DNA of 37,117 nucleotides from a virus: the IMG/VR virus record IMGVR_UViG_3300019477_000150; one strand, 5' to 3'. Under the pieces are notes generated by a model. The model made no database searches, was not told where the DNA came from, and worked only from the letters and a program-made list of their open reading frames with translations. A program made the translations under genes and the position numbers. Each line of letters opens with the position of its first letter. Position 1 is the first letter of the stretch. This document shows, one piece after another, positions 1,023 to 28,730 of this stretch.

Positions 1023-4000
1023 ATGGCTTGGATAAAAATACCTGAAAACAAAACTGAAATGCAGATAGGCGGCAACTGGGTAAAAATACCTAATGGCATG
1101 AAAGAGGTCGAGATACCTGATAATTTATTAGGCACGCAGTCAGCAAATAGCACACCAGCTTATGCGCCGCCTGCTCCTGATATGAGTAAAGCAGTAGATG
1201 CTACACCAAAAGAAAAGACGTGGTATGACAAAGTTGGCGAGTTTGCAGATAAAATCTCTCCAATAAATGTCATAAAAGGGGTAGGTAAAGAGTTAGGGGG
1301 AATGCTTGAGCATTCTCACTATGACGGGGCTACTGGCGAAGAATTAGAAGCAAAAAAAGCTACTGAAGCGCTATCAAGAGCAAAACATGCAAGCGATGAT
1401 AGAAACATTATCTCACAGCTTGCAGGTGACGAAAGTAAAGATCAAGCAGTAAAAGAAAGAACCGAAAATTTGCTCTACAACTGGGCTAAAAAGAATAATT
1501 ATGATGACGTAAGAGAGGCTAATGGCAAGTATTATTTACAAAAAGGAGATAATTTTATCCCAGTAGATGAGCCAGGTATCGGCGATAGCGTCTCAACCTA
1601 TTTAAACGAAATGGGCGTGCCTATGGGGGCAATAACTCTAGCGTCTAATCTTTTACCAAATAAAAAACTAAGTGCAGTGCAAAAGGCGGTAACTGCTGCT
1701 CTTGGTACAGCTGGAGCATCTGGCATTGGTGCTACAATGGACGTTTTTGCCGATAAAAGAATTTTAGGCGATGATAGCATAACCACTGATGATTATTTAA
1801 AACACGCTTTGCGTGGCGCAAGCGATGATGCTTTAGTCTCGGCTCCACTAGCGGCAATGGCATCGCCAGCGGTTAAAGAAGCTCTAAAAAAAGGGGCAAA
1901 AACAGCTTCTGATCTATCACTTGTAAAACCTCTTGCAAGATACGTGATAAATGACAATATTGGTGGGGCTGAAAAAGCAATAATGGATAAATTAGGCGGA
2001 GAGGCTAACGCAGCAGCAGCTCAAAATTTATCTAAAAATGCACTTGGCGATGACCTTTATAGGACTTTACTAAACGACGACCAAGCTTATGCTTTACCAA
2101 AAGTTGGCAATGAAAAGATACAAAAAGGCATTAACTACGTAAACGACAATATCTTAGCTCCAGCTCAAAAAATAACAAGAGATATGGTAAAGGGCGAGGG
2201 GACAAGAGAGCGAGAAATGGATCTATTTTTAACTGCTCTTGGTAACGATGCTAAGGGGGCGGATATAATTGCCGATGCAGTTGCTAGAGATCCAAAAAGC
2301 TTTTCAAAAATTTACAAAATGTCAAGCGACTTAAACGCAGACGCAAAAAATGCTTTTCTTAATATGATAGAAAAGAAAAAGACAGCAGATATTTTAAGCG
2401 GATACGAAAAACGTACAAAAGATAATTTTGGCGAGGTGATAAACGCCCTTGATGATGCCTTTGTGGGCAAAGAAGCAAGCGCAAATTTGCTCCAAGCTAA
2501 ACATGAACTTGGCACTCAGGCGTTAAGACTGCCAGCAGGGTATAAAGATAGCACATTGGAGCTATTAGGAAATATCAAAGGCTTTAAAGGGCTTAACGAA
2601 GTAAGAAACGTGCTAAGTGCTGATATGGCAAGGCTAACTGCTCCTGATGCTATCACAGCAGGCACTAAAAAAACACTTGGCAAGATGATAGAAGCAGTAG
2701 ATAATGCAATAGACAATGTCGCCGAGCAAGCCTTTAGTAACCCAGCTCTTAGCCAAAAAGCAAAAGATGTTTTAAAACAAGCAAGAAGCGAATACGCTCT
2801 TTTTAAAGAACTTCAAAACTCTAAAATTTACCATGATGTAATGGGTGAGCTAAAGAGTAGTGGCGATATAACAAACTCGCTCTTAAAAGCCCTAAATGCT
2901 GAAAATGGGCTTGATTTTAAAGCTCTTACAGCTAGATTAAGCAGTAGCGAGCAAGAAGCGCTAGAAACTAACTTAATCCGTGGGGTAATAGAAAAATTTA
3001 CCAAAGATGGGATAACTGACTTTTCTAAAGTAAGCAATACTTTAAAAAATGCTCCGTTTGAGAGCAAAAGAGCGGTAGAGATAATGGGTGAGCTAAACAA
3101 AAAAGCTCCTATACTAAATAACACGTCATCACTACTTGAAAAACTAACAGCGATTAATCCAAAGGCTAAAGAGCTACAACAAGGCATAGGGCATTCAGTA
3201 ACTGGAGCACTTATGACAATGAAGAGAAATTTAGCCATTGAAAGGTTAAAATCACTACTCCCAGTATTAGGCAATGACGCATCTTTAAAAAATCATATAA
3301 GAAATGCAATTAATAATGCAGGCGATCTAAAAAGCGTCATTAATAATCTTGAAAAGATAGAGATAAAAGATGCACCAGAGAACTCAACTAAACTACTAGA
3401 GGCTTTTAAAAACGAGGTAAAGGCGTTAAGAGAAGAGGCTCAAACTGGAGAGATAAAAGGGGATGGGTTTGTAGTAAAAAATGGTGGCAAACTTACTTTT
3501 ATGGATGAAGCTAAATTTGAGCTAAGTAAAGAGCTTCAAGGCAAGACTGATCTAGGTGAAAAAATATCAACTTCTTTAGCGTGGCTTCACTCAAAACATC
3601 CTGAAATGTTTGAGAACAAAAGAGCAGTTAAAGAACTAATTGATTATGTGCTTGATGAACCAAATACTATAAAGGCTGGAAAAAGCGAAAATAGTGTTTA
3701 TCTTGGTAAAAAAGATGGCACAAAAATAAAAGATATTGTGGTAAATAAAAGTGAAAATAAAATAATTCACGCAAATAGACGCAGGATGAGTACGGATGAA
3801 ATAAAGGCTGACGGTAAGGACGCCCACATCCCCTTACACACTGATACTATGCCAGCAGGGGCGACTGGTGCAAATGCACGTTCGTCAGCTGATGAAAGCA
3901 TTATACCAAAACAAACACAAGAATTAGATAAAACTTTAGAAAATAGAAATGTTAAGCCTTATAAGAATAAAGAGGATGCTCTTGTAAAAGAGGGTTATTT

Positions 4001-5159
4001 AAACCCAACATGGGAACCACAACTAAAGACTATTGCAAAAGAGCATGCCTTAGACGAAGCAAAACTAAAAGAGATTTTTTTAGACCAAACTATCAACACA
4101 TCAAAGGGGAGAAAGCCTAACTTCTTTTTAGACTTAGGAGATATTGTACCAACTTATGGTAAAAGCAAACGCTCCCCTGAATACACTAATAATTTAAGAG
4201 AAATAGACAATAAGTTACAACAAGCATACGAGGCTTTTGTGAAACCACTAAGTGCTAGTGAAAGCAAAAAAATAAAAACCCTTTATGCTAATCCGCACAT
4301 AGCAAGCGGCTTACTTGGTGGCACAGCAAATGGTGCTGATGAAAACGGCAACGTAAGCCCTGAAGAGTTTGCAAAAGGTTTTGTATATGCATTGTTTGGG
4401 TCAAAGATAACAGCCGAGGGAGTAAAAAAAGTAAGCCCTGAACTTTATAATAAGATACTAAGCATATCAAAAAAGCCAAGCGAAGAGATAAAAAAGATAG
4501 TAGATAATGCAGGAGTGGATAAACTTGCTAAACAAGAAAAAAGGGGTATTTATAATGTTACATATAATGGCAAATTTTCAACCCCAGTTTATAAGGATTT
4601 AGAGGATGTAGAGGGAGCGGTAAGATATGCGATAGGGAATAAAAACAAAGGAGCCAAGCATATCGAGATAAAGCATTTAGAAGACACAACAAAGGAAGGT
4701 TATGTTACGAAGCAAGAACTATTAAATATGGGCGAGAATATGCGTAAATTTATAAAAGAATATAAAGAACCATTTATAAATGATCGCAAAGCAAGGCTTT
4801 ATGAGTGGGAAGATAAAGATGGTGTAAGATTTAGGCTTGTCATAAATGATATAAAAGATAAAAACGGAGGAAGCGGGATACACTCCGCAATTACTTCAAC
4901 CTCCGCTAATGATGACATTATAACCTTTTATTCTGATAGAAACTTAAAAGAGCCGATGAAGTTTGAGAACCCAAAGCTTAAGCTACTTGATGCAATAGAC
5001 ACAAGTAGCGACAAGGTAGGCTTAGTTAAAAAAGTGCTGCTAAACAAAGACGTAAGTGACGGAGTAAAAGCTAAAGCAGTAAATAGGCTAACTAAAAATA
5101 AAATTAGTCAAGGTGCAAAAACTAGCTATATATCTACTAAAAACTCAGATAACAATTAG
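1023..5159 (+). CDS. Very large (1378 aa), mostly alpha-helical virion protein. Candidate internal-core/ejection or polyvalent protein; the C-terminal roughly 300 aa form a distinct domain (GAKHIEIKH...).
   Basis: Uninterrupted ORF 10 nt after the previous gene. Composition is Ala/Lys/Glu-rich and helical. It sits between scaffold and capsid genes, and no tape-measure gene occurs elsewhere in the window. Confidence 0.5.
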   Translation: MAWIKIPENKTEMQIGGNWVKIPNGMKEVEIPDNLLGTQSANSTPAYAPPAPDMSKAVDATPKEKTWYDKVGEFADKISPINVIKGVGKELGGMLEHSHYDGATGEELEAKKATEALSRAKHASDDRNIISQLAGDESKDQAVKERTENLLYNWAKKNNYDDVREANGKYYLQKGDNFIPVDEPGIGDSVSTYLNEMGVPMGAITLASNLLPNKKLSAVQKAVTAALGTAGASGIGATMDVFADKRILGDDSITTDDYLKHALRGASDDALVSAPLAAMASPAVKEALKKGAKTASDLSLVKPLARYVINDNIGGAEKAIMDKLGGEANAAAAQNLSKNALGDDLYRTLLNDDQAYALPKVGNEKIQKGINYVNDNILAPAQKITRDMVKGEGTREREMDLFLTALGNDAKGADIIADAVARDPKSFSKIYKMSSDLNADAKNAFLNMIEKKKTADILSGYEKRTKDNFGEVINALDDAFVGKEASANLLQAKHELGTQALRLPAGYKDSTLELLGNIKGFKGLNEVRNVLSADMARLTAPDAITAGTKKTLGKMIEAVDNAIDNVAEQAFSNPALSQKAKDVLKQARSEYALFKELQNSKIYHDVMGELKSSGDITNSLLKALNAENGLDFKALTARLSSSEQEALETNLIRGVIEKFTKDGITDFSKVSNTLKNAPFESKRAVEIMGELNKKAPILNNTSSLLEKLTAINPKAKELQQGIGHSVTGALMTMKRNLAIERLKSLLPVLGNDASLKNHIRNAINNAGDLKSVINNLEKIEIKDAPENSTKLLEAFKNEVKALREEAQTGEIKGDGFVVKNGGKLTFMDEAKFELSKELQGKTDLGEKISTSLAWLHSKHPEMFENKRAVKELIDYVLDEPNTIKAGKSENSVYLGKKDGTKIKDIVVNKSENKIIHANRRRMSTDEIKADGKDAHIPLHTDTMPAGATGANARSSADESIIPKQTQELDKTLENRNVKPYKNKEDALVKEGYLNPTWEPQLKTIAKEHALDEAKLKEIFLDQTINTSKGRKPNFFLDLGDIVPTYGKSKRSPEYTNNLREIDNKLQQAYEAFVKPLSASESKKIKTLYANPHIASGLLGGTANGADENGNVSPEEFAKGFVYALFGSKITAEGVKKVSPELYNKILSISKKPSEEIKKIVDNAGVDKLAKQEKRGIYNVTYNGKFSTPVYKDLEDVEGAVRYAIGNKNKGAKHIEIKHLEDTTKEGYVTKQELLNMGENMRKFIKEYKEPFINDRKARLYEWEDKDGVRFRLVINDIKDKNGGSGIHSAITSTSANDDIITFYSDRNLKEPMKFENPKLKLLDAIDTSSDKVGLVKKVLLNKDVSDGVKAKAVNRLTKNKISQGAKTSYISTKNSDNN

Positions 5160-14399: not shown

Positions 14400-14670
14400 A
14401 ATAAAAAGCGTGTTTAAAACCAAAAATGTATAAAAAAATGTATAACTAAAAAATCTAAAGTATTTATTTATAGGGCTATATAAAGATTTTTTTGGCGTCA
14501 TTCGGGGCCACCATTACTGCTTTTTATATCAATTTATACTCATTTATTTTTATTTATAGAAGTCCTAAATTTAGCTTCTAAAAAGTATTTTTCAATTTAT
14601 ATTAATTTATAAATATTTATACTTATTTACAATCAAAGTGTATAACAAAATGTATAACCAAGGAATAAAC
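14400..14670. promoter_or_regulatory. attP-like region upstream of int. AT-rich, with direct repeats (TTTATTTATAG x2; (A/G)TGTATAAC x4) flanking a short GC-rich core (14494..14520).
   Basis: ATGTATAAAA 14426, ATGTATAACT 14438, GTGTATAACA 14638 and ATGTATAACC 14650. The GC core is GGCGTCATTCGGGGCCACCATTACTGC. Position is immediately 5' of the integrase. Confidence 0.4.
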
Positions 14671-15870
14671 ATGCCTAAAATTTTAAACATCTCGCAGGTA
14701 AAAAAACTAACCCACGATGACAAAAAGCTTAAAAATCACTCCATTGATAGCACTTGCTCACTTTACCTTGCTTGTTTTGACAATGGCACTAAAATTTATA
14801 AGATGCGCACAAAAAGTGGCTATATAACGATAGGGCGGTATGAGGATATAAGTTTAGCAGAAGCAAGGGATATGGCAAAGAGTATGCGAAAAGAAAAGCT
14901 TGGCTTAGTAGTAAAGAGCAAAGCCCTTGGCGAGTGCTTTTATGAGTGGCTAGACATAAAGATCCCGCACATTGATGACGAAAAGATAAGGCAGAAACGT
15001 CGTAAGCAGATAAATAGGGTAAATAAGCACATCTTAAAGCCACTTGGCAGCAAAAATATTAGTGAGATAACAAAGCAGGATATTTTGGATGCGACTAAGG
15101 GTGTGAGCTTGGAGAGTGCAAAGAAAATTTTAACAACGCTAAGATATGTTTTTAAATTTGCTAGGGGAAATGGTTTTGTAAAGGATATTAGTTTTTTGCT
15201 TGAAATAATAGAGGATAAAAGAGATATTTTTGTAAATAAAAAGGTCGAGCATAGAAAAGGTATAACAAGCGAGCTTAGGTTAAAAGAGATAATCACCTGC
15301 GTTCATGAAGCAAGGATAAACCAAGTGGTTAAAAATATGTTTTTCTTTAACCTTTTAACCGCACAGCGCCCCCACCAAATAAGAGAGCTTACGTGGGATA
15401 GGGTAGATTTGCAAAAAGGGCTTATCTACTTTTACGAAGAGCAAAACAAGACTGGACTAAATGTGAGACTGCCGCTATCAAAGCAAGCGATAGAAATTTT
15501 AAATTTTCAGCGCGCTATTAACGATAACGGCAAGGCAGTCTTTAAATCTCCTTTTAACTCACGTGTTAGCGGTCAAGCCTTTTGCGATGCTGTGCTTTTA
15601 AAAACGCTAAAAAGTATCGGCATAAACGACCTTCACGCACACGGCTTTCGCGCTACTTTTGCTACCTTTGCGATCCGCGCAAATGAGGGCAACAAAGCGA
15701 TGTTTGAAAAAAGAGTGATAGATGAGATATTGCTTCACACGGTAGGCAGTGACGTGGATAAGGCTTATTTTAGGGATTTTAACACGAGTGAGCAACTTCG
15801 CGTTTTGCAATGGTGGGATAATTTTTTATTTGAGCTTTGCGGTTTTAAATTTTGCCAAATCAGCCTCTAA
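14671..15870 (+). CDS. int: Tyrosine site-specific integrase (phage integrase family).
   Basis: C-terminal catalytic signature ...HAHGFRATFATFA...LLHTVGSDVDKAYFR (H-x-x-R ... Y). SD AAGGA before ATG 14671; the track's GTG 14638 lies inside the arm-type repeats. Confidence 0.85.
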   Translation: MPKILNISQVKKLTHDDKKLKNHSIDSTCSLYLACFDNGTKIYKMRTKSGYITIGRYEDISLAEARDMAKSMRKEKLGLVVKSKALGECFYEWLDIKIPHIDDEKIRQKRRKQINRVNKHILKPLGSKNISEITKQDILDATKGVSLESAKKILTTLRYVFKFARGNGFVKDISFLLEIIEDKRDIFVNKKVEHRKGITSELRLKEIITCVHEARINQVVKNMFFFNLLTAQRPHQIRELTWDRVDLQKGLIYFYEEQNKTGLNVRLPLSKQAIEILNFQRAINDNGKAVFKSPFNSRVSGQAFCDAVLLKTLKSIGINDLHAHGFRATFATFAIRANEGNKAMFEKRVIDEILLHTVGSDVDKAYFRDFNTSEQLRVLQWWDNFLFELCGFKFCQISL

Positions 15871-24696: not shown

Positions 24697-24985
24697 TTTT
24701 AACTCCTTTTGATATTTAGATAGGCGATATTCTTTATCTCGCCGCCATTGCTGAAAAGCACCCTAAAAAATTTAATTAGCTTTCTCATCTCAAGCTCCTT
24801 TTTCTAATAGAAACCTTGCTCGCCACCGCCGACTGAAAGATGTTAAAAATTAATTTAGCTTGCAAAAGCAACTTTAAAGGAAAATTTTTTGTATGAAAAA
24901 TGTTAGAGGCTTTCGCCTACTCCAAGCAAGCAAGGCTTTTATTAGAAAAAGTGGTGTTTTTCGTTTTATTAATAACCCTGTGAAA

Positions 24986-25134
24986 AACTATCCTAAATCA
25001 GGGCTGGTACTGAGTGATAGCTTTTCGCCCTATCACTGACGCTTCAGATTGAAACGTGATTAAACCTGCAAACTCGCAGGAGGCTCACTCTGTCAGCTTT
25101 CGCTTGAAGCCTACAAAACGTTTTCCGTTTTCGA
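24986..25134. ncRNA. GC-rich structured element (several hairpins) in the early-left leader; candidate regulatory RNA or antitermination (nut/put-like) site.
   Basis: Hairpins AGTGATAG/CTATCACT (25023..25047) and CCTGC/GCAGG (25075..25090). Long-range pairing GCTTCA/TGAAGC. Ends in the palindrome AAAACGTTTT. Local GC is well above the AT-rich surroundings. Confidence 0.3.
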
Positions 25135-25141
25135 TGAGAGA

Positions 25142-25195
25142 AGTATAATATTATTGAACTTAAAAGAAAATAAAAAAGCTCAATATTATTGAACT
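25142..25195. promoter_or_regulatory. O_L-like operator pair: AGTATAATATTATTGAACT (25142..25160) and AGCTCAATATTATTGAACT (25177..25195).
   Basis: The same imperfect palindrome occurs three times in the cI/cro spacer. The two sites are 35 bp apart and overlap a TATAAT. Confidence 0.5.
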
Positions 25196-25451
25196 AAAAA
25201 AATATTTTAAAATTTGTTTTTAGAAATAGGCTGTGGTATAACTTGTTTGGATAAGTGAATGATACATTATGTGTCAAAAGAGATACAGTAATAAAAATGT
25301 TTTTATGGTATAATTTTAGAAAAATGGTGGCATTAGGCTAGCAATTAGCTGGGGTTATAGTAATTTAAACATCGACGTCTTTATCGTATTACTCTTTATT
25401 GTTGTGGGCGTAATAGCTTATTTAGTATTTTTTAAAATCAAGGAGGGCAAT

Positions 25452-25532
25452 ATGAGGAAAAACATAATTGGATTTGCTAAAAAAATGGCAGAGAAGATCG
25501 GTGGCGTTGTTTTGAATAAATTACTAGCCTAA
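25452..25532 (+). CDS. Tiny ORF (26 aa, MRKNIIGFAKKMAEKIGGVVLNKLLA) with a very strong SD, convergent on the nuclease gene.
   Basis: AAGGAGGG lies 6 nt before the ATG. Amphipathic, basic peptide. No homology can be asserted. Confidence 0.2.
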   Translation: MRKNIIGFAKKMAEKIGGVVLNKLLA

Positions 25533-25534
25533 GA

Positions 25535-25984
25535 TCAGCGTTTTCTCCACTCCCACGGCGGAGTAGGATTACTACTCTGCCAAAGCCCTCGCTTGTTCTC
25601 ACGAGCCAGCTTTTCTTGATCTACATACATTCTCGAGTATTTCATGTAAGCCCAAGCATAGCTATTTAGCACCATTTGAGCGTTTATGTCTTGCCCTTTA
25701 TGATGGATAATGCCTAGTGTGCGTTTATATCTATCTTTGCCCTTTGGCTCTACTTCTACAACTTGCCCTGCGATTAGGCTAGCCAAAAATTGTTTTGATC
25801 GTTGTCCGTAGTCTTGCTTTTTCTCTGGAGCGTCAATGCCATATAGCCTTACCTTTGTTTGCTCTTTGCCGCTTAGCACAGTGATAGTGTCGCCGTCAGA
25901 TATTTTTATGACTTTGGCTGAAAAAGCAAAGAGAGATAATGGAGAAACAAAAAGAAAACCGATCAAAAAAATATTTTTTATCAA
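25535..25984 (-). CDS. Secreted staphylococcal-nuclease-like thermonuclease (SNase fold) with Sec signal peptide.
   Basis: ...DGDT...RLYGIDAPE...DRYKRTL...GLW... align with the SNase catalytic blocks. N-terminal MIKNIFLIGFLFVSPLSLFAFSA is a signal peptide. TTG start overlapping the upstream stop (TTGA). Confidence 0.75.
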   Translation of the reverse strand: MIKNIFLIGFLFVSPLSLFAFSAKVIKISDGDTITVLSGKEQTKVRLYGIDAPEKKQDYGQRSKQFLASLIAGQVVEVEPKGKDRYKRTLGIIHHKGQDINAQMVLNSYAWAYMKYSRMYVDQEKLARENKRGLWQSSNPTPPWEWRKR

Positions 25985-26484
25985 TCGTCTTTCTTCTTGA
26001 AAAGTTCTTTTTGGTTTTTTTCTATCTCGCAGACTAAGTTTATTGAGTTTTGGGTTAAATCCATTACTTTTCTGTGCTCACCGTAGTAGGTAGTCTTTTT
26101 TTTGCAAAGTTCCTTTATGTACTCAAGGATGGAAATATCCGCTTTGTATATTTGTTCCAATAATGTTTTATATTCCCCAAGCATTTGTTCTTCTGATATA
26201 GTCTTTTCATAATAATCACTAATAGCTAGAGCGAATATATTAACTCTTATATAGTTTAGTCGGATAATAGCTAAATAATTAAGGGCTTCAATATTTGATG
26301 TAAGCTCTGCAATATTACCATCATAATCTTTTTTTAAAATTTTCGAGAAACAATCTTTTAAGACTAATAAACACTCCTTTTTCTCGTTGTCGGTCCTTTG
26401 TAATATATCTTTTGTTAGCAAATATAAAAAATTAAATAGAGTAAAAAATATAGCTATTGCAGAAAGCCACGCGGGGGTACTCAT
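25981..26484 (-). CDS. Single-pass membrane protein (N-terminal TM, helical soluble domain), 167 aa.
   Basis: Hydrophobic N-terminus AWLSAIAIFFTLFNFLYLL. A 6-nt gap separates it from the upstream gene, and it overlaps the downstream nuclease gene. Confidence 0.5.
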   Translation of the reverse strand: MSTPAWLSAIAIFFTLFNFLYLLTKDILQRTDNEKKECLLVLKDCFSKILKKDYDGNIAELTSNIEALNYLAIIRLNYIRVNIFALAISDYYEKTISEEQMLGEYKTLLEQIYKADISILEYIKELCKKKTTYYGEHRKVMDLTQNSINLVCEIEKNQKELFKKKDD

Positions 26485-26490
26485 AATTTA

Positions 26491-26826
26491 CTACTTTGTT
26501 ATTGGCTTAGAAAAAGCCCTAAATTTTTCTTCTAGCTTTGGATTATCCTTGCTGAATAATTTTATTCTCCTAAAAAACTCAGTTTCCCCTAGTTTTTCAT
26601 ATAAAGGTGAAAATGCTTCAGACAAAAAAGAGGGGTTAAAAGAGGTTTTTATCCCGCTGCCGTCTATATCTATAATGTCATATTTATCCAACAAACCCTT
26701 TAATACATCTTCTCTAAATTCTTCTCCAGACTTATCGCCAAGTCTTTTGTACCTAGGTCCTGGAGCATCCGTAAAATTCTCAGCAAAATTATATATAATC
26801 TTATTTTCCATCATTCTGCTCCTCAC
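26491..26826 (-). CDS. Small STAS-like (DUF4325-like) protein, 111 aa.
   Basis: ...IIDIDGSGIKTSFNPSFLSEAF...L...G resembles the DUF4325 'LDFeGV..isSSFldE.fg' block. It overlaps the ATPase gene by 26 nt. Confidence 0.45.
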   Translation of the reverse strand: MRSRMMENKIIYNFAENFTDAPGPRYKRLGDKSGEEFREDVLKGLLDKYDIIDIDGSGIKTSFNPSFLSEAFSPLYEKLGETEFFRRIKLFSKDNPKLEEKFRAFSKPITK

Positions 26827-27883
26827 TTAAATCTCTTATGGACCATCTAATGAATGTCCCTTGTATTTTGGATTTAAGTTTTATGATTTTATCATTTTTT
26901 GTTAAATATAAAAAGCTATCAGTTGCAACCTCTAGTGAAGCACTCTTACTCATATCTTGCTGAATAATATCTATAAAATTTTTAAAAGCTATCATCCCAA
27001 ACCCCCTGTTTTTGTTTTTGTCTTTATATTTTGATAGATTAGACCTACATAAAGTTCGCAAGGTATTCCCTTTCCCAATACGTTTTAATAATCTATGCAT
27101 GGCTATTGAAAACTTATTTTTTTCACTCTCTAATGATTTAAATATCCCCATGCCTGTATCATAGAAAATAAATTCAATTTCTTTGTCATCCTTATTGTAT
27201 GCACCCATAAACCATACTTTTTTATCCCCATCAAAATCAACAAAAGCGTGCTCGCTCGAGTTTGCCATTGCCTCAAAAATTGCATCAAATAACTCATCTT
27301 TATTTTTTTCTAAAATTTTATTCTCGCCAGCAAAAAAATCTATAATTGGATAGTGAAATTCGTTGTCTATTTGCACGCCATCACGATAATCTATTTTTAG
27401 GTATTTTTGCCCTTCTTTGATTGCTTCTTTTCTTGGGTTTATACACAATGCATCCCAATACCCTATGGCAGCCAATCTTTGATCTATTGATTTTATTGGC
27501 GAAATTTTACTACTTCTTATTAACTTTTGCCCACTAAAAATATTATTAATCCCAACAGTCATTAGAAGGATAGAAGCATTGTCGATTTCTCTCATCTTTC
27601 TATGATCCATAGACATTATGCAACTATGTCTTTTGTTTTGGTAATTTTTGAGTTTATCAAGTGTAGAATTTATGAGTTTTATATCTTCAGGGAAAACTAT
27701 TTTTTCAGGCATCTCAATTTTATATAGCACCTTATTTTTATGACACAAATCATGGGGAGGGTTAAAATTGTGCTCGTGAGTGCTTTTTTTATTTTTACGC
27801 TTAATTTTTTTTCGCACTTTTCGTCTATAATTTGGCACATCCGTAACCGAAGAAACTTTACTATTCTCTATAATAATTTTCAT
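26801..27883 (-). CDS. GHKL / histidine-kinase-like ATPase with a basic, Lys-rich N-terminal region, 360 aa.
   Basis: Bergerat-fold motifs in the correct order: N-box FEAMANSSEHA, G1 DTGMGI, G2 NRGFGMIAF. The start lies 31 nt after the repressor stop. Confidence 0.5.
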   Translation of the reverse strand: MKIIIENSKVSSVTDVPNYRRKVRKKIKRKNKKSTHEHNFNPPHDLCHKNKVLYKIEMPEKIVFPEDIKLINSTLDKLKNYQNKRHSCIMSMDHRKMREIDNASILLMTVGINNIFSGQKLIRSSKISPIKSIDQRLAAIGYWDALCINPRKEAIKEGQKYLKIDYRDGVQIDNEFHYPIIDFFAGENKILEKNKDELFDAIFEAMANSSEHAFVDFDGDKKVWFMGAYNKDDKEIEFIFYDTGMGIFKSLESEKNKFSIAMHRLLKRIGKGNTLRTLCRSNLSKYKDKNKNRGFGMIAFKNFIDIIQQDMSKSASLEVATDSFLYLTKNDKIIKLKSKIQGTFIRWSIRDLSEEQNDGK

Positions 27884-27914: not shown

Positions 27915-28619
27915 TTACTTTATCCCATAATCCTCAAACGTCAGCCCTTTATACACTTCGCAATGGACTTTACCGCAGACTTTGCCAAGTATCTCACACT
28001 CGTAGCCCTCTTTATGTGGGTATATGTCGCTATATTTTGGGTTTAGGCTGATTAGTTTTATTTTATTCTGTGGCAAAAACTCAACCCTTTTGATATAGAC
28101 TACGTCGTCCATTCTGACAATATAAACGCCAGCTATACGCACGAAGTTATCCCTACCTGCTACCATATCAGCAATAGCCCAGTCACCCTCGTAAAAATCA
28201 GGCTCCATGCTATCGCCTACCACTTCGAAAATGCGTAAATTTTTAGTATCAAGCCCTTTTAGAAAAGCTTTATCAACGGCAATCTTTCGCTCGTCTTTTT
28301 GAAGCATAGCGAGATCATAAACGCCCTCGCTACCTGCGCCTATACGCATTTCGGATTTTGGGACATATACCATATTTTCTTGAGGTTTAGAAAAAAGGCT
28401 TTGTTTTACAACCTCATTTACGTCTAATTTTAACACTTTAGCTACGCCTATCATATTTTTTAAGTCAGGCACAATAGGCTCTTTCATAAACCATTTTTTA
28501 ATAGCCGATTCTGTGATAGGGTAGCCTGCATTTGTCATATCTATTGCTAAATCGGCGTATCTAATCTTTTTTTCTTTCATTTTCTCTTTTAAAAAATCAG
28601 TGTTTAGCAGAAAATCCAT
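27915..28619 (-). CDS. cI/LexA-type phage repressor (N-terminal HTH, C-terminal S24 peptidase).
   Basis: GDSM (Ser) and YIKRV (Lys) catalytic dyad. Divergent from a Cro-like gene, with operator palindromes in the spacer. Confidence 0.85.
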   Translation of the reverse strand: MDFLLNTDFLKEKMKEKKIRYADLAIDMTNAGYPITESAIKKWFMKEPIVPDLKNMIGVAKVLKLDVNEVVKQSLFSKPQENMVYVPKSEMRIGAGSEGVYDLAMLQKDERKIAVDKAFLKGLDTKNLRIFEVVGDSMEPDFYEGDWAIADMVAGRDNFVRIAGVYIVRMDDVVYIKRVEFLPQNKIKLISLNPKYSDIYPHKEGYECEILGKVCGKVHCEVYKGLTFEDYGIK

Positions 28620-28639: not shown

Positions 28640-28730
28640 AGTTCAGTTTTATTATACCATTGTTTTTAAAAATAATAGTTCAATACTATTGAGCTTTTTT
28701 AACTTTTTTTAAGTTCTTTTAAATTATACT
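28640..28730. promoter_or_regulatory. O_R-like operator cluster (3 sites) with divergent P_RM/P_R-type promoters.
   Basis: AGTTCAGTTTTATTATACC (28640), AGTTCAATACTATTGAGCT (28677) and AGTTCTTTTAAATTATACT (28712), spaced about 35-37 bp apart. Confidence 0.5.

Follow-up and report, generated by a model that had tools for sequence, protein, structure and literature searches.

The locus described here consists of four minus-strand genes, designated A to D, that follow a cI-like repressor gene in a viral DNA record of IMG/VR (IMGVR_UViG_3300019477_000150); the window referred to throughout is the whole 37,117-nucleotide (nt) stretch of this record. The locus is part of a Campylobacter prophage, as placed by protein searches (C. 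showae, C. concisus and related species), and lies just 3′ of the repressor gene. With slightly better than even confidence, it is interpreted as a lysogen-expressed, phosphorylation-gated defence module in the rexAB position, composed of a kinase (A), a STAS-domain protein (B) and a membrane effector (C), accompanied by an independent moron that encodes a secreted nuclease (D). As judged by profile comparison, the A-B-C triad is distantly related to VapKSC, a system described only recently, and differs from it in the effector. What is established by observation, and what this interpretation is built from, comprises the protein folds and motifs, the order of the genes, their conservation, their genomic positions and the remote homology.

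Conservation and genomic context of the triad

Related loci, given L numbers where they need to be told apart, were drawn from public assemblies, species genomes, phage records and IMG/VR; a narrow-alignment genome scan reached Campylobacter and Wolinella only. Genes A and B followed by a small open reading frame (ORF) with an N-terminal hydrophobic helix, either a homologue of C or its positional analogue, were found in 32 of the 34 evaluable loci, and triad loci span Campylobacter, Helicobacter, Wolinella, Aliarcobacter, the Marinobacter phage AS1 and contigs from soil and wastewater. Wherever A and B co-occur, B is located directly 3′ of A, and the triad layout is retained down to relatives of A at E ~1e-14 in soil and wastewater metagenomes. 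The equivalents in phage AS1 are AS1_41 (A; E = 1e-58), AS1_40 (B) and the transmembrane (TM) protein AS1_39. The conserved module is A-B-C and not four genes; the single four-gene unit proposed in the initial annotation of this DNA stands for the triad and fails for the nuclease gene, for reasons given below together with gene D.

Nowhere in the window is the AT content higher than in the triad, the GC content of which (31.0%) lies within the lowest 0.4% of equal-sized segments, for a window mean of ~38.5% (standard deviation 2.5%). The AT-richness formerly ascribed to the whole operon holds for A-B-C and not for D, the GC content of which (41.3%) is higher than the mean.

In 16 loci, which represent at least four unrelated lineages, the gene directly 5′ of A encodes a cI-type repressor and lies on the strand of A. 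These are a group of Campylobacter prophages (the window, L006, L008–L010, L023 and L025), the repressors of which are homologous to that of the window; a second group (L027–L031); L033 and L038; the distant L014 (B 39% identical); and phage AS1, in which AS1_42 matches Phage_CI_repr (E = 1.4e-7). An identical order of CI repressor, 293-residue protein, 112-residue DUF4325 protein and 125-residue TM protein can be read from the gene table of Francisella phage KIRK (PMC7924643).

The window displays a lambdoid gene order, running from the integrase through RecT, an exonuclease VIII-like gene and leftward operator-like sites with a putative leftward promoter to the D-C-B-A-cI block, a cro-like gene and an O-like replication gene. 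The D-C-B-A block occupies the rexAB position, between cI and the leftward operator-like sites, as had been proposed, and its four ORFs are present where they had been reported, the first of them 31 nt past the repressor gene, with 6 nt separating B from C. Operator-like sites were likewise found on both flanks, the term 'clusters' being an overstatement for one full palindrome per side, the two being near-identical and in inverted orientation, and one additional partial copy (Table 1). The O_L-like sites overlap a leftward promoter-like sequence, TATTATACT, which was spotted by eye and is not listed by the promoter scan, the outcome of which was not above chance (16 sites versus 18.8 expected). 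No terminator-like site was found in the cI–A interval. Cotranscription of A-B-C with cI is plausible, and is put no higher because the promoter scan performed at chance level.

Some triads are chromosomal. In an Aliarcobacter sp. (L012, JBOEJB010000003.1, positions 1600–4646), the triad lies just 3′ of a Macro-domain gene and DarT (a DarTG-like arrangement) and SocA_Panacea, in surroundings that look like a defence or toxin–antitoxin (TA) island.

Domain architecture of A, B and C

Protein A begins with a disordered tail rich in lysine and arginine, which is followed by a STAS-like domain and then by a GHKL kinase domain of the SpoIIAB/RsbW type (Table 1). Despite a Pfam match that is sub-threshold only (HATPase_c_2, E = 0.076), the GHKL kinase fold is clear. 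In an alignment of 47 divergent homologues (16–65% identity), E204, N208 (N-box), D242, G244 (G1), G294, G296 (G2), G342 and W347 are invariant, and G246, R293 and T343 are kept in at least 44 members; the motifs formed are ExxxN, DxGxG, RGxG and GT. The basic character of the tail is equally general, lysine and arginine accounting for 27–55% of residues 1–50 in all 47 sequences. The family is large: with a cutoff of E ≤ 1e-10, a full scan of a library of 50%-identity representatives returned at least 360 clusters, a figure that rises to 1,636 when E ≤ 1e-3 is allowed.

A separate observation concerns residue 101 of A (~27581–27583), at the start of the helix of its STAS-like domain that aligns to helix α2 of the STAS domain of VapK, which is where STAS antagonists bear their phosphoserine. 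This column contains Ser or Thr in 22 of the 47 homologues and Asp or Glu in 19 (Asp in the window), and is followed by Pro in 19 and by Asn in nine. In some members it could undergo autophosphorylation in cis, and in others it could act as a built-in phosphomimic.

Protein B matches DUF4325 (PF14213) in Pfam (E = 1.2e-9), and its structure model, with a predicted local distance difference test score (pLDDT) of 95, is closest to STAS antagonists. The GHKL and STAS-like assignments made initially were borne out, and both the kinase fold of A and the STAS fold of B are supported. The true start of B is probably ATG 26814 or 26811, since these codons lie just 3′ of a Shine–Dalgarno sequence (GAGGAG) and homologues begin with MEDKIIY or MKEKIIY. 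As a consequence of this start, the overlap between A and B would be 11–14 nt, replacing the 26 nt originally given. B is a single STAS domain of 106 residues with no winged helix–turn–helix (wHTH) or other DNA-binding domain, and its candidate phospho-acceptor is the serine of the motif PSFLSEAF, which is kept in 116 of 117 homologues and is located in the first turn of helix α2.

B also aligns to a 441-position phage family profile of PHROG (phrog_5816), along positions 335–432 alone, which indicates that there are phage proteins in which DUF4325 is fused to an N-terminal part of ~330 residues. The architecture of this family could be that of a kinase–STAS fusion.

The membrane protein C was correctly recognized as such: an N-terminal TM helix is found in the C proteins of all 12 related loci that were scored. 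Beyond this helix the protein is a helical, lysine-rich domain, which the positive-inside rule places probably in the cytoplasm. Comparison of C with Pfam, NCBIfam and PHROG yielded no family and no PIN domain. Among six Campylobacterota homologues, N18, Y21, K25 and D26 are invariant. Within the Campylobacterota, sequence identity is highest for B (57–87%) and lowest for C (26–74%).

Relationship to known systems

The kinase–STAS pairs to which A and B can be compared were described by Chambers et al. (EMBO J, 2026, PMC13373217). CapK (HTH-STAS-GHKL, HTH being helix–turn–helix) is switched on by single-stranded DNA (ssDNA) and phosphorylates CapS (STAS-wHTH), the two being DNA-damage-activated transcriptional regulators of CBASS, Bub and Thoeris operons. 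The VapKSC operon encodes VapK (STAS-GHKL), VapS (a 116-residue STAS antitoxin phosphorylated at S48) and the PIN toxin VapC, and constitutes a phosphorylation-released toxin system that protects Escherichia coli from phage Bas42. Activation of the kinases by ssDNA takes place via a conserved aromatic residue, F54 in VapK and W68 in CapK (PMC13373217). One clade of PIN proteins is coupled to DUF4325 genes (Matelska et al., 2017).

With the VapK, VapS and CapK sequences sourced from the supplementary files of PMC13373217, the A family was aligned using hhalign to VapK (97.3% probability, E = 2e-11, 270 columns over both domains, identity ~14%) and to CapK (97.4%, E = 1.3e-11, over most of the length). 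On the basis of these profile alignments, A is a remote homologue of both kinases. VapS matches DUF4325 (PF14213; E = 2.7e-17), as does B, and the two proteins consequently belong to one Pfam family. In Foldseek, the model of B gave no significant match to PDB entries released by 8 April 2026, VapS (9Z7O), which may have been released later, not being among the matches listed, and sequence profile searches of PDB sequences, which do include VapS, with B and with the B-family profile retrieved neither VapS nor CapS. The serine of B falls one to two residues from VapS S48 in all alignments tried.

The likeness to VapKSC extends to the layout of the operon: three co-oriented genes in identical order, a STAS-GHKL kinase first, a DUF4325 protein of ~110 residues with a conserved serine at the start of helix α2 second, and a small gene third, which encodes the effector in VapKSC and is proposed to do so here. 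The third gene product differs, being a membrane protein with an N-terminal TM helix instead of a PIN/VapC RNase; indeed, a PIN gene in third position was found in none of the 34 related loci. A carries a K/R-rich N-terminal tail of ~50 residues that VapK does not have, B contains an extra N-terminal loop (PGPRY...SGEEFR) and A-B-C is typically tied to a prophage repressor. Since the defining PIN toxin is absent, the triad is not a member of VapKSC. CapK–CapS shares with A-B the combination of a STAS-GHKL kinase and a STAS substrate, but CapK has an N-terminal HTH domain and CapS a C-terminal wHTH repressor domain, in contrast to the disordered basic tail of A and the lack of a DNA-binding domain in B, and B is followed only by C and not by a multi-gene immune operon. 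The SpoIIAB–SpoIIAA and RsbW–RsbV pairs have the same kinase and STAS folds; unlike in these pairs, A bears a STAS-like domain of its own, and the genes reside in a prophage or mobile element together with that of a membrane-protein partner. No sigma factor gene was found in or beside the triads examined.

The resemblance to RexA–RexB of lambda is one of position and composition: the genes are located directly 3′ of cI, share its strand and fall within the interval that separates it from the leftward operator and promoter, and they comprise a cytoplasmic sensor and a membrane protein with presumed expression in the lysogen. There is no sequence or family relationship, A, B and C having no match to the RexA and RexB Pfam families at E values up to 1, and the three components include a predicted ATP-dependent kinase and a STAS switch. 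RexB has four TM helices and in this respect also differs from C, which has one.

The initial annotation had not recognized the locus as a named defence system. No system in PADLOC-DB v2.0.0 (2023) was matched by the triad, A and B giving no match and C only weak, spurious ones (E = 0.003–0.006), and no match to NCBIfam was obtained for A, B or C; D matches a generic SNc+LTD model of PADLOC-DB. The locus is no orphan, its triad being a sister of the VapK–VapS/CapK–CapS family described in 2026. A description of the A-B-C triad itself was not found in a literature search, in which Chambers et al. (2026) was the only directly relevant report.

Proposed mechanism and its implications

By analogy with VapK–VapS–VapC and SpoIIAB–SpoIIAA, A would be a cytoplasmic serine kinase and sensor, and B its substrate and antagonist. 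In the resting lysogen, unphosphorylated B would keep C inactive through its cytoplasmic domain. An infection cue, possibly a nucleic acid bound by the basic tail of A or by its STAS-GHKL groove, would switch on the kinase, and active A would then phosphorylate the conserved serine at the start of helix α2 of B, causing it to free C. Once freed, C, the proposed effector of the triad, may perturb or damage the membrane, leading to abortive infection or to exclusion of the superinfecting phage. Expressed by the prophage along with its repressor, A-B-C would be a functional parallel to RexA–RexB. The kinase activity of A, the interaction between B and C, the trigger, the toxicity of C and the defence phenotype are all proposed in this scheme by analogy.

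A broader proposition, to which somewhat less than an even chance is given, is that A-B-C represents a widespread and unnamed anti-phage system, in which a nucleic-acid-sensing STAS-GHKL kinase phosphorylates a DUF4325 protein and so unleashes a small membrane protein, and which temperate phages of several phyla carry in their repressor operons as a functional replacement for RexAB. If this is true, the CapK/VapK type of sensor pair is a general, effector-swappable trigger that phages themselves use for superinfection immunity. The kinase–STAS pair was characterized only in 2026, with two outputs, the CapS repressor and the VapC PIN toxin, to which the present locus would add a third, a membrane protein; moreover, the wiring of the triad into repressor operons, in the classical rexAB position, has recurred among temperate phages. 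At ~1.9 kb, A-B-C is an easily cloned candidate that bears on how prophages protect their hosts, on whether phosphorylation-gated STAS switches are a general trigger of defence and on the signal sensed by a basic-tailed kinase. As regards annotation, a DUF4325 gene in a prophage of Campylobacter or Helicobacter can be taken together with the 'hypothetical' genes beside it as a single module.

A number of observations weigh against the defence module as proposed. The direct hhalign comparison of the B family with VapS is not significant (probability 1–14%), and because of this the link between them is drawn from the Pfam family to which both belong and from the homology of A to VapK. The register of the B serine relative to VapS S48 is uncertain by one to two residues; one alignment sets an Asn at the S48 position and the serine of B two residues further on. 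In the A family, the column aligned to VapK F54 contains Glu, Lys or Asn, none of which is aromatic. Cotranscription with cI is argued only from spacing and from the lack of a predicted terminator, and several triads are found in ordinary, housekeeping chromosomal neighbourhoods with no defence genes nearby. The function proposed for the triad is, for all of its members, one of analogy. As regards C, similarity to known toxins or pores was not detected, and it could be an anchor or a sensor instead of the output. Furthermore, B is far more conserved than C, which is unexpected if B binds C via a large co-evolving surface, and the combination of a conserved B with a fast-diverging C suits a sensor or anchor about equally to an effector.

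These last points lead to an alternative in which C is the input or anchor of the system, sensing phage adsorption or DNA entry or tethering the complex, while A acts on other host or phage proteins and B is a buffer or antagonist in the manner of RsbW/RsbV. The fast evolution of C next to a highly conserved B is what would be expected if C were a sensor and had to cope with variable phage determinants. In addition, protein targets besides the STAS partner do exist for GHKL anti-sigma kinases, and the conserved basic tail of A could bind membrane lipids; on the other hand, no gene for a candidate target, such as a sigma factor, lies nearby, and in VapKSC, the sole characterized relative with this three-gene layout, the third gene encodes the toxin. 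This alternative is regarded as unlikely.

A similarly low probability is assigned to A-B-C being a partner-switching module with which the prophage regulates itself. Much as in CapK–CapS, the module would then make induction, the timing of lysis or the activity of the repressor respond to DNA damage or to the state of the envelope, instead of acting as an effector system against phages. The CapK–CapS proteins, remote homologues of A and B, are indeed regulators of transcription activated by DNA damage, and the triad is tightly tied to cI in at least four phage lineages. Nevertheless, B is a bare 106-residue STAS domain with no wHTH and therefore cannot act like CapS, the triads of L012, L015 and L021 have neither a repressor nor phage genes nearby, and the repressor possesses an S24 autocleavage domain of its own.

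A plain addiction module of the TA type, stabilizing the prophage or island with no anti-phage role, appears quite improbable. Such a function would be in keeping with the TA-like architecture of VapKSC and with the TA-like pairs found as neighbours in the slot next to C, but a sensor kinase of ~350 residues with a conserved nucleic-acid-binding-like tail exceeds the needs of simple addiction, and VapKSC does protect against phage.

Gene D and the variable cargo slot

D had been described as a secreted thermonuclease, and the nuclease assignment was supported. The protein matches the SNase family of Pfam (PF00565; E = 1.4e-21, 77.3 bits for a cutoff of 21), the equivalents of D21, R35, D40, E43 and R87 of Staphylococcus aureus nuclease are all present, leaving the catalytic residues intact, and a hydrophobic, signal-peptide-like leader, MIKNIFLIGFLFVSPLSLFA, can be read off the sequence at its N-terminus. 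As an SNase that is secreted or located in the periplasm, D would break down DNA outside the cell or entering it. In being prophage-borne and equipped with an apparent signal peptide, D resembles the DNases of Campylobacter jejuni prophages (CJIE1 dns, CJIE2 cje0566 and CJIE4 cje1441), the expression of which prevents natural competence and degrades the extracellular DNA (eDNA) of biofilms (PMC4372405); D has an SNase (PF00565) fold.

D is set apart from A-B-C because it occurs in three loci only (the window, L002 and L025), differs in GC content and lies in a variable slot. Of the 34 evaluable triads, 31 lack it, and these include the closest of the relatives linked to cI. Comparison of related prophages, which the initial annotation had suggested for the entire cargo region between cI and O_L, revealed that the slot 3′ of C varies among sister prophages that retain cI-A-B-C; the cargo found there includes TA-like pairs and unrelated small genes (Table 1). 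D is an accessory moron outside the conserved triad and was probably acquired independently; the region from the triad to the leftward promoter is a cargo hotspot, in which D is one of several morons that can take each other's place. The nuclease had been counted among the components of the kinase/STAS device; its predicted signal peptide would mean that it is exported, and an exported protein is unlikely to be the output of a cytoplasmic switch. Against a full separation of D from the triad stands the 4-nt overlap between C and D (gaTTGAta), which is seen again in L025; because it recurs, D is probably at least co-expressed with the triad where present.

The least probable reading is that all four genes form one device, with the membrane protein and the nuclease both under the control of the GHKL/STAS pair and with SNase destroying incoming or host DNA: the C/D overlap in the window and L025 and the occurrence of A-B-C-D in a different element of Campylobacter sp. 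RM16192 speak for it, but they are outweighed by the absence of SNase from nearly all triads, by the GC content of D (41%, versus 31% for A-B-C), by a signal peptide that would place D outside the cytoplasm in which A and B reside, and by the HigBA-like, HicAB-like or Panacea-type pairs that take its slot in sister prophages. The adjacent SNase is best handled as a separate moron, which may affect natural transformation and biofilm eDNA.

In the Campylobacter sp. RM16192 locus (L002; CP012552.1, 844617–861687), A, B, C and D are complete, with 65, 79, 51 and 63% identity, respectively, to the proteins of the window. The mobile element is a different one, its primase being of the D5 type and its portal and capsid of the SU10 type; the A-B-C-D set lies 3′ of a weakly matching Phage_CI_repr gene and four small ORFs, and adjoins a gene for a ParE-like toxin.

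Table 1 Coordinates of features in the window and of slot cargo in related loci
Feature	Locus	Position	Strand	Basis or remark
Integrase gene	Window	14638–15870		
Partial copy of O_L-like palindrome	Window	25144–25160		Motif search, ≤3 mismatches
O_L-like operator palindrome AGCTCAATATTATTGAACT	Window	25177–25195		Direct sequence reading; motif search, ≤3 mismatches
Gene D, 149 residues, TTG start	Window	25535–25984	−	ORF
Gene C, 167 residues, ATG start	Window	25981–26484	−	ORF
C, N-terminal TM helix, residues ~5–24	Window	26413–26472	−	
Gene B, 111 residues if GTG 26826; 106–107 if ATG 26811/26814	Window	26491–26826 or 26491–26814	−	
B, candidate phospho-acceptor, Ser of PSFLSEAF (S66, GTG numbering)	Window	26629–26631 (codon)	−	
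Gene A, 360 residues, ATG start	Window	26801–27883	−	ORF
A, SpoIIAB/RsbW-type GHKL kinase domain, residues ~190–352	Window	26828–27316	−	
A, STAS-like domain, residues ~52–170	Window	27374–27730	−	
A, K/R-rich disordered tail, residues 1–50	Window	27734–27883	−	pLDDT <50
cI-like repressor gene (HTH and S24 autopeptidase)	Window	27915–28619	−	Pfam Peptidase_S24, E = 1.7e-16; PHROG phrog_4 'transcriptional repressor', E = 4.8e-30
O_R-like operator palindrome AGTTCAATACTATTGAGCT in the cI/cro divergent intergenic region	Window	28677–28695		Inverted relative of the O_L-like site; direct reading and motif search
Slot cargo: Gp49/HigB gene and HTH_3 gene (HigBA-like)	L010	9883–10471		Pfam-confirmed
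Slot cargo: HicA/HicB-like pair	L023	6876–7450		Assigned by eye
Slot cargo: Panacea-like pair	L024	6828–7854		Assigned by eye
Slot cargo: unrelated small genes, secreted or membrane proteins	L008	10176–11008		Assigned by eye

Flanking sequences

No family was matched when the whole window was compared with Rfam, and a nucleotide search of phage records with the locus and the intergenic region 24700–25540 gave no match. A leader of ~440 nt (24697–25140, minus strand) separates the putative leftward promoter from the first leftward early gene (ATG 24696) and holds an upstream ORF of 29 residues (24699–24788). Neither an Rfam family nor similar phage DNA was found for this leader, and the portion that was folded (24940–25140) scored no better than shuffled sequences (z = −1.6).

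A small plus-strand ORF (25404–25532) runs toward D and encodes 26 residues from ATG 25452, which is preceded by a strong AAGGAGG, or 42 residues from a GTG (MGVIAYLVFFKIKEGNMRKNIIGFAKKMAEKIGGVVLNKLLA). A terminator-like hairpin for this ORF is located on the plus strand at 25591–25606, within the 3′ end of D. The ORF could encode a small membrane peptide or be a type-I-toxin-like gene.

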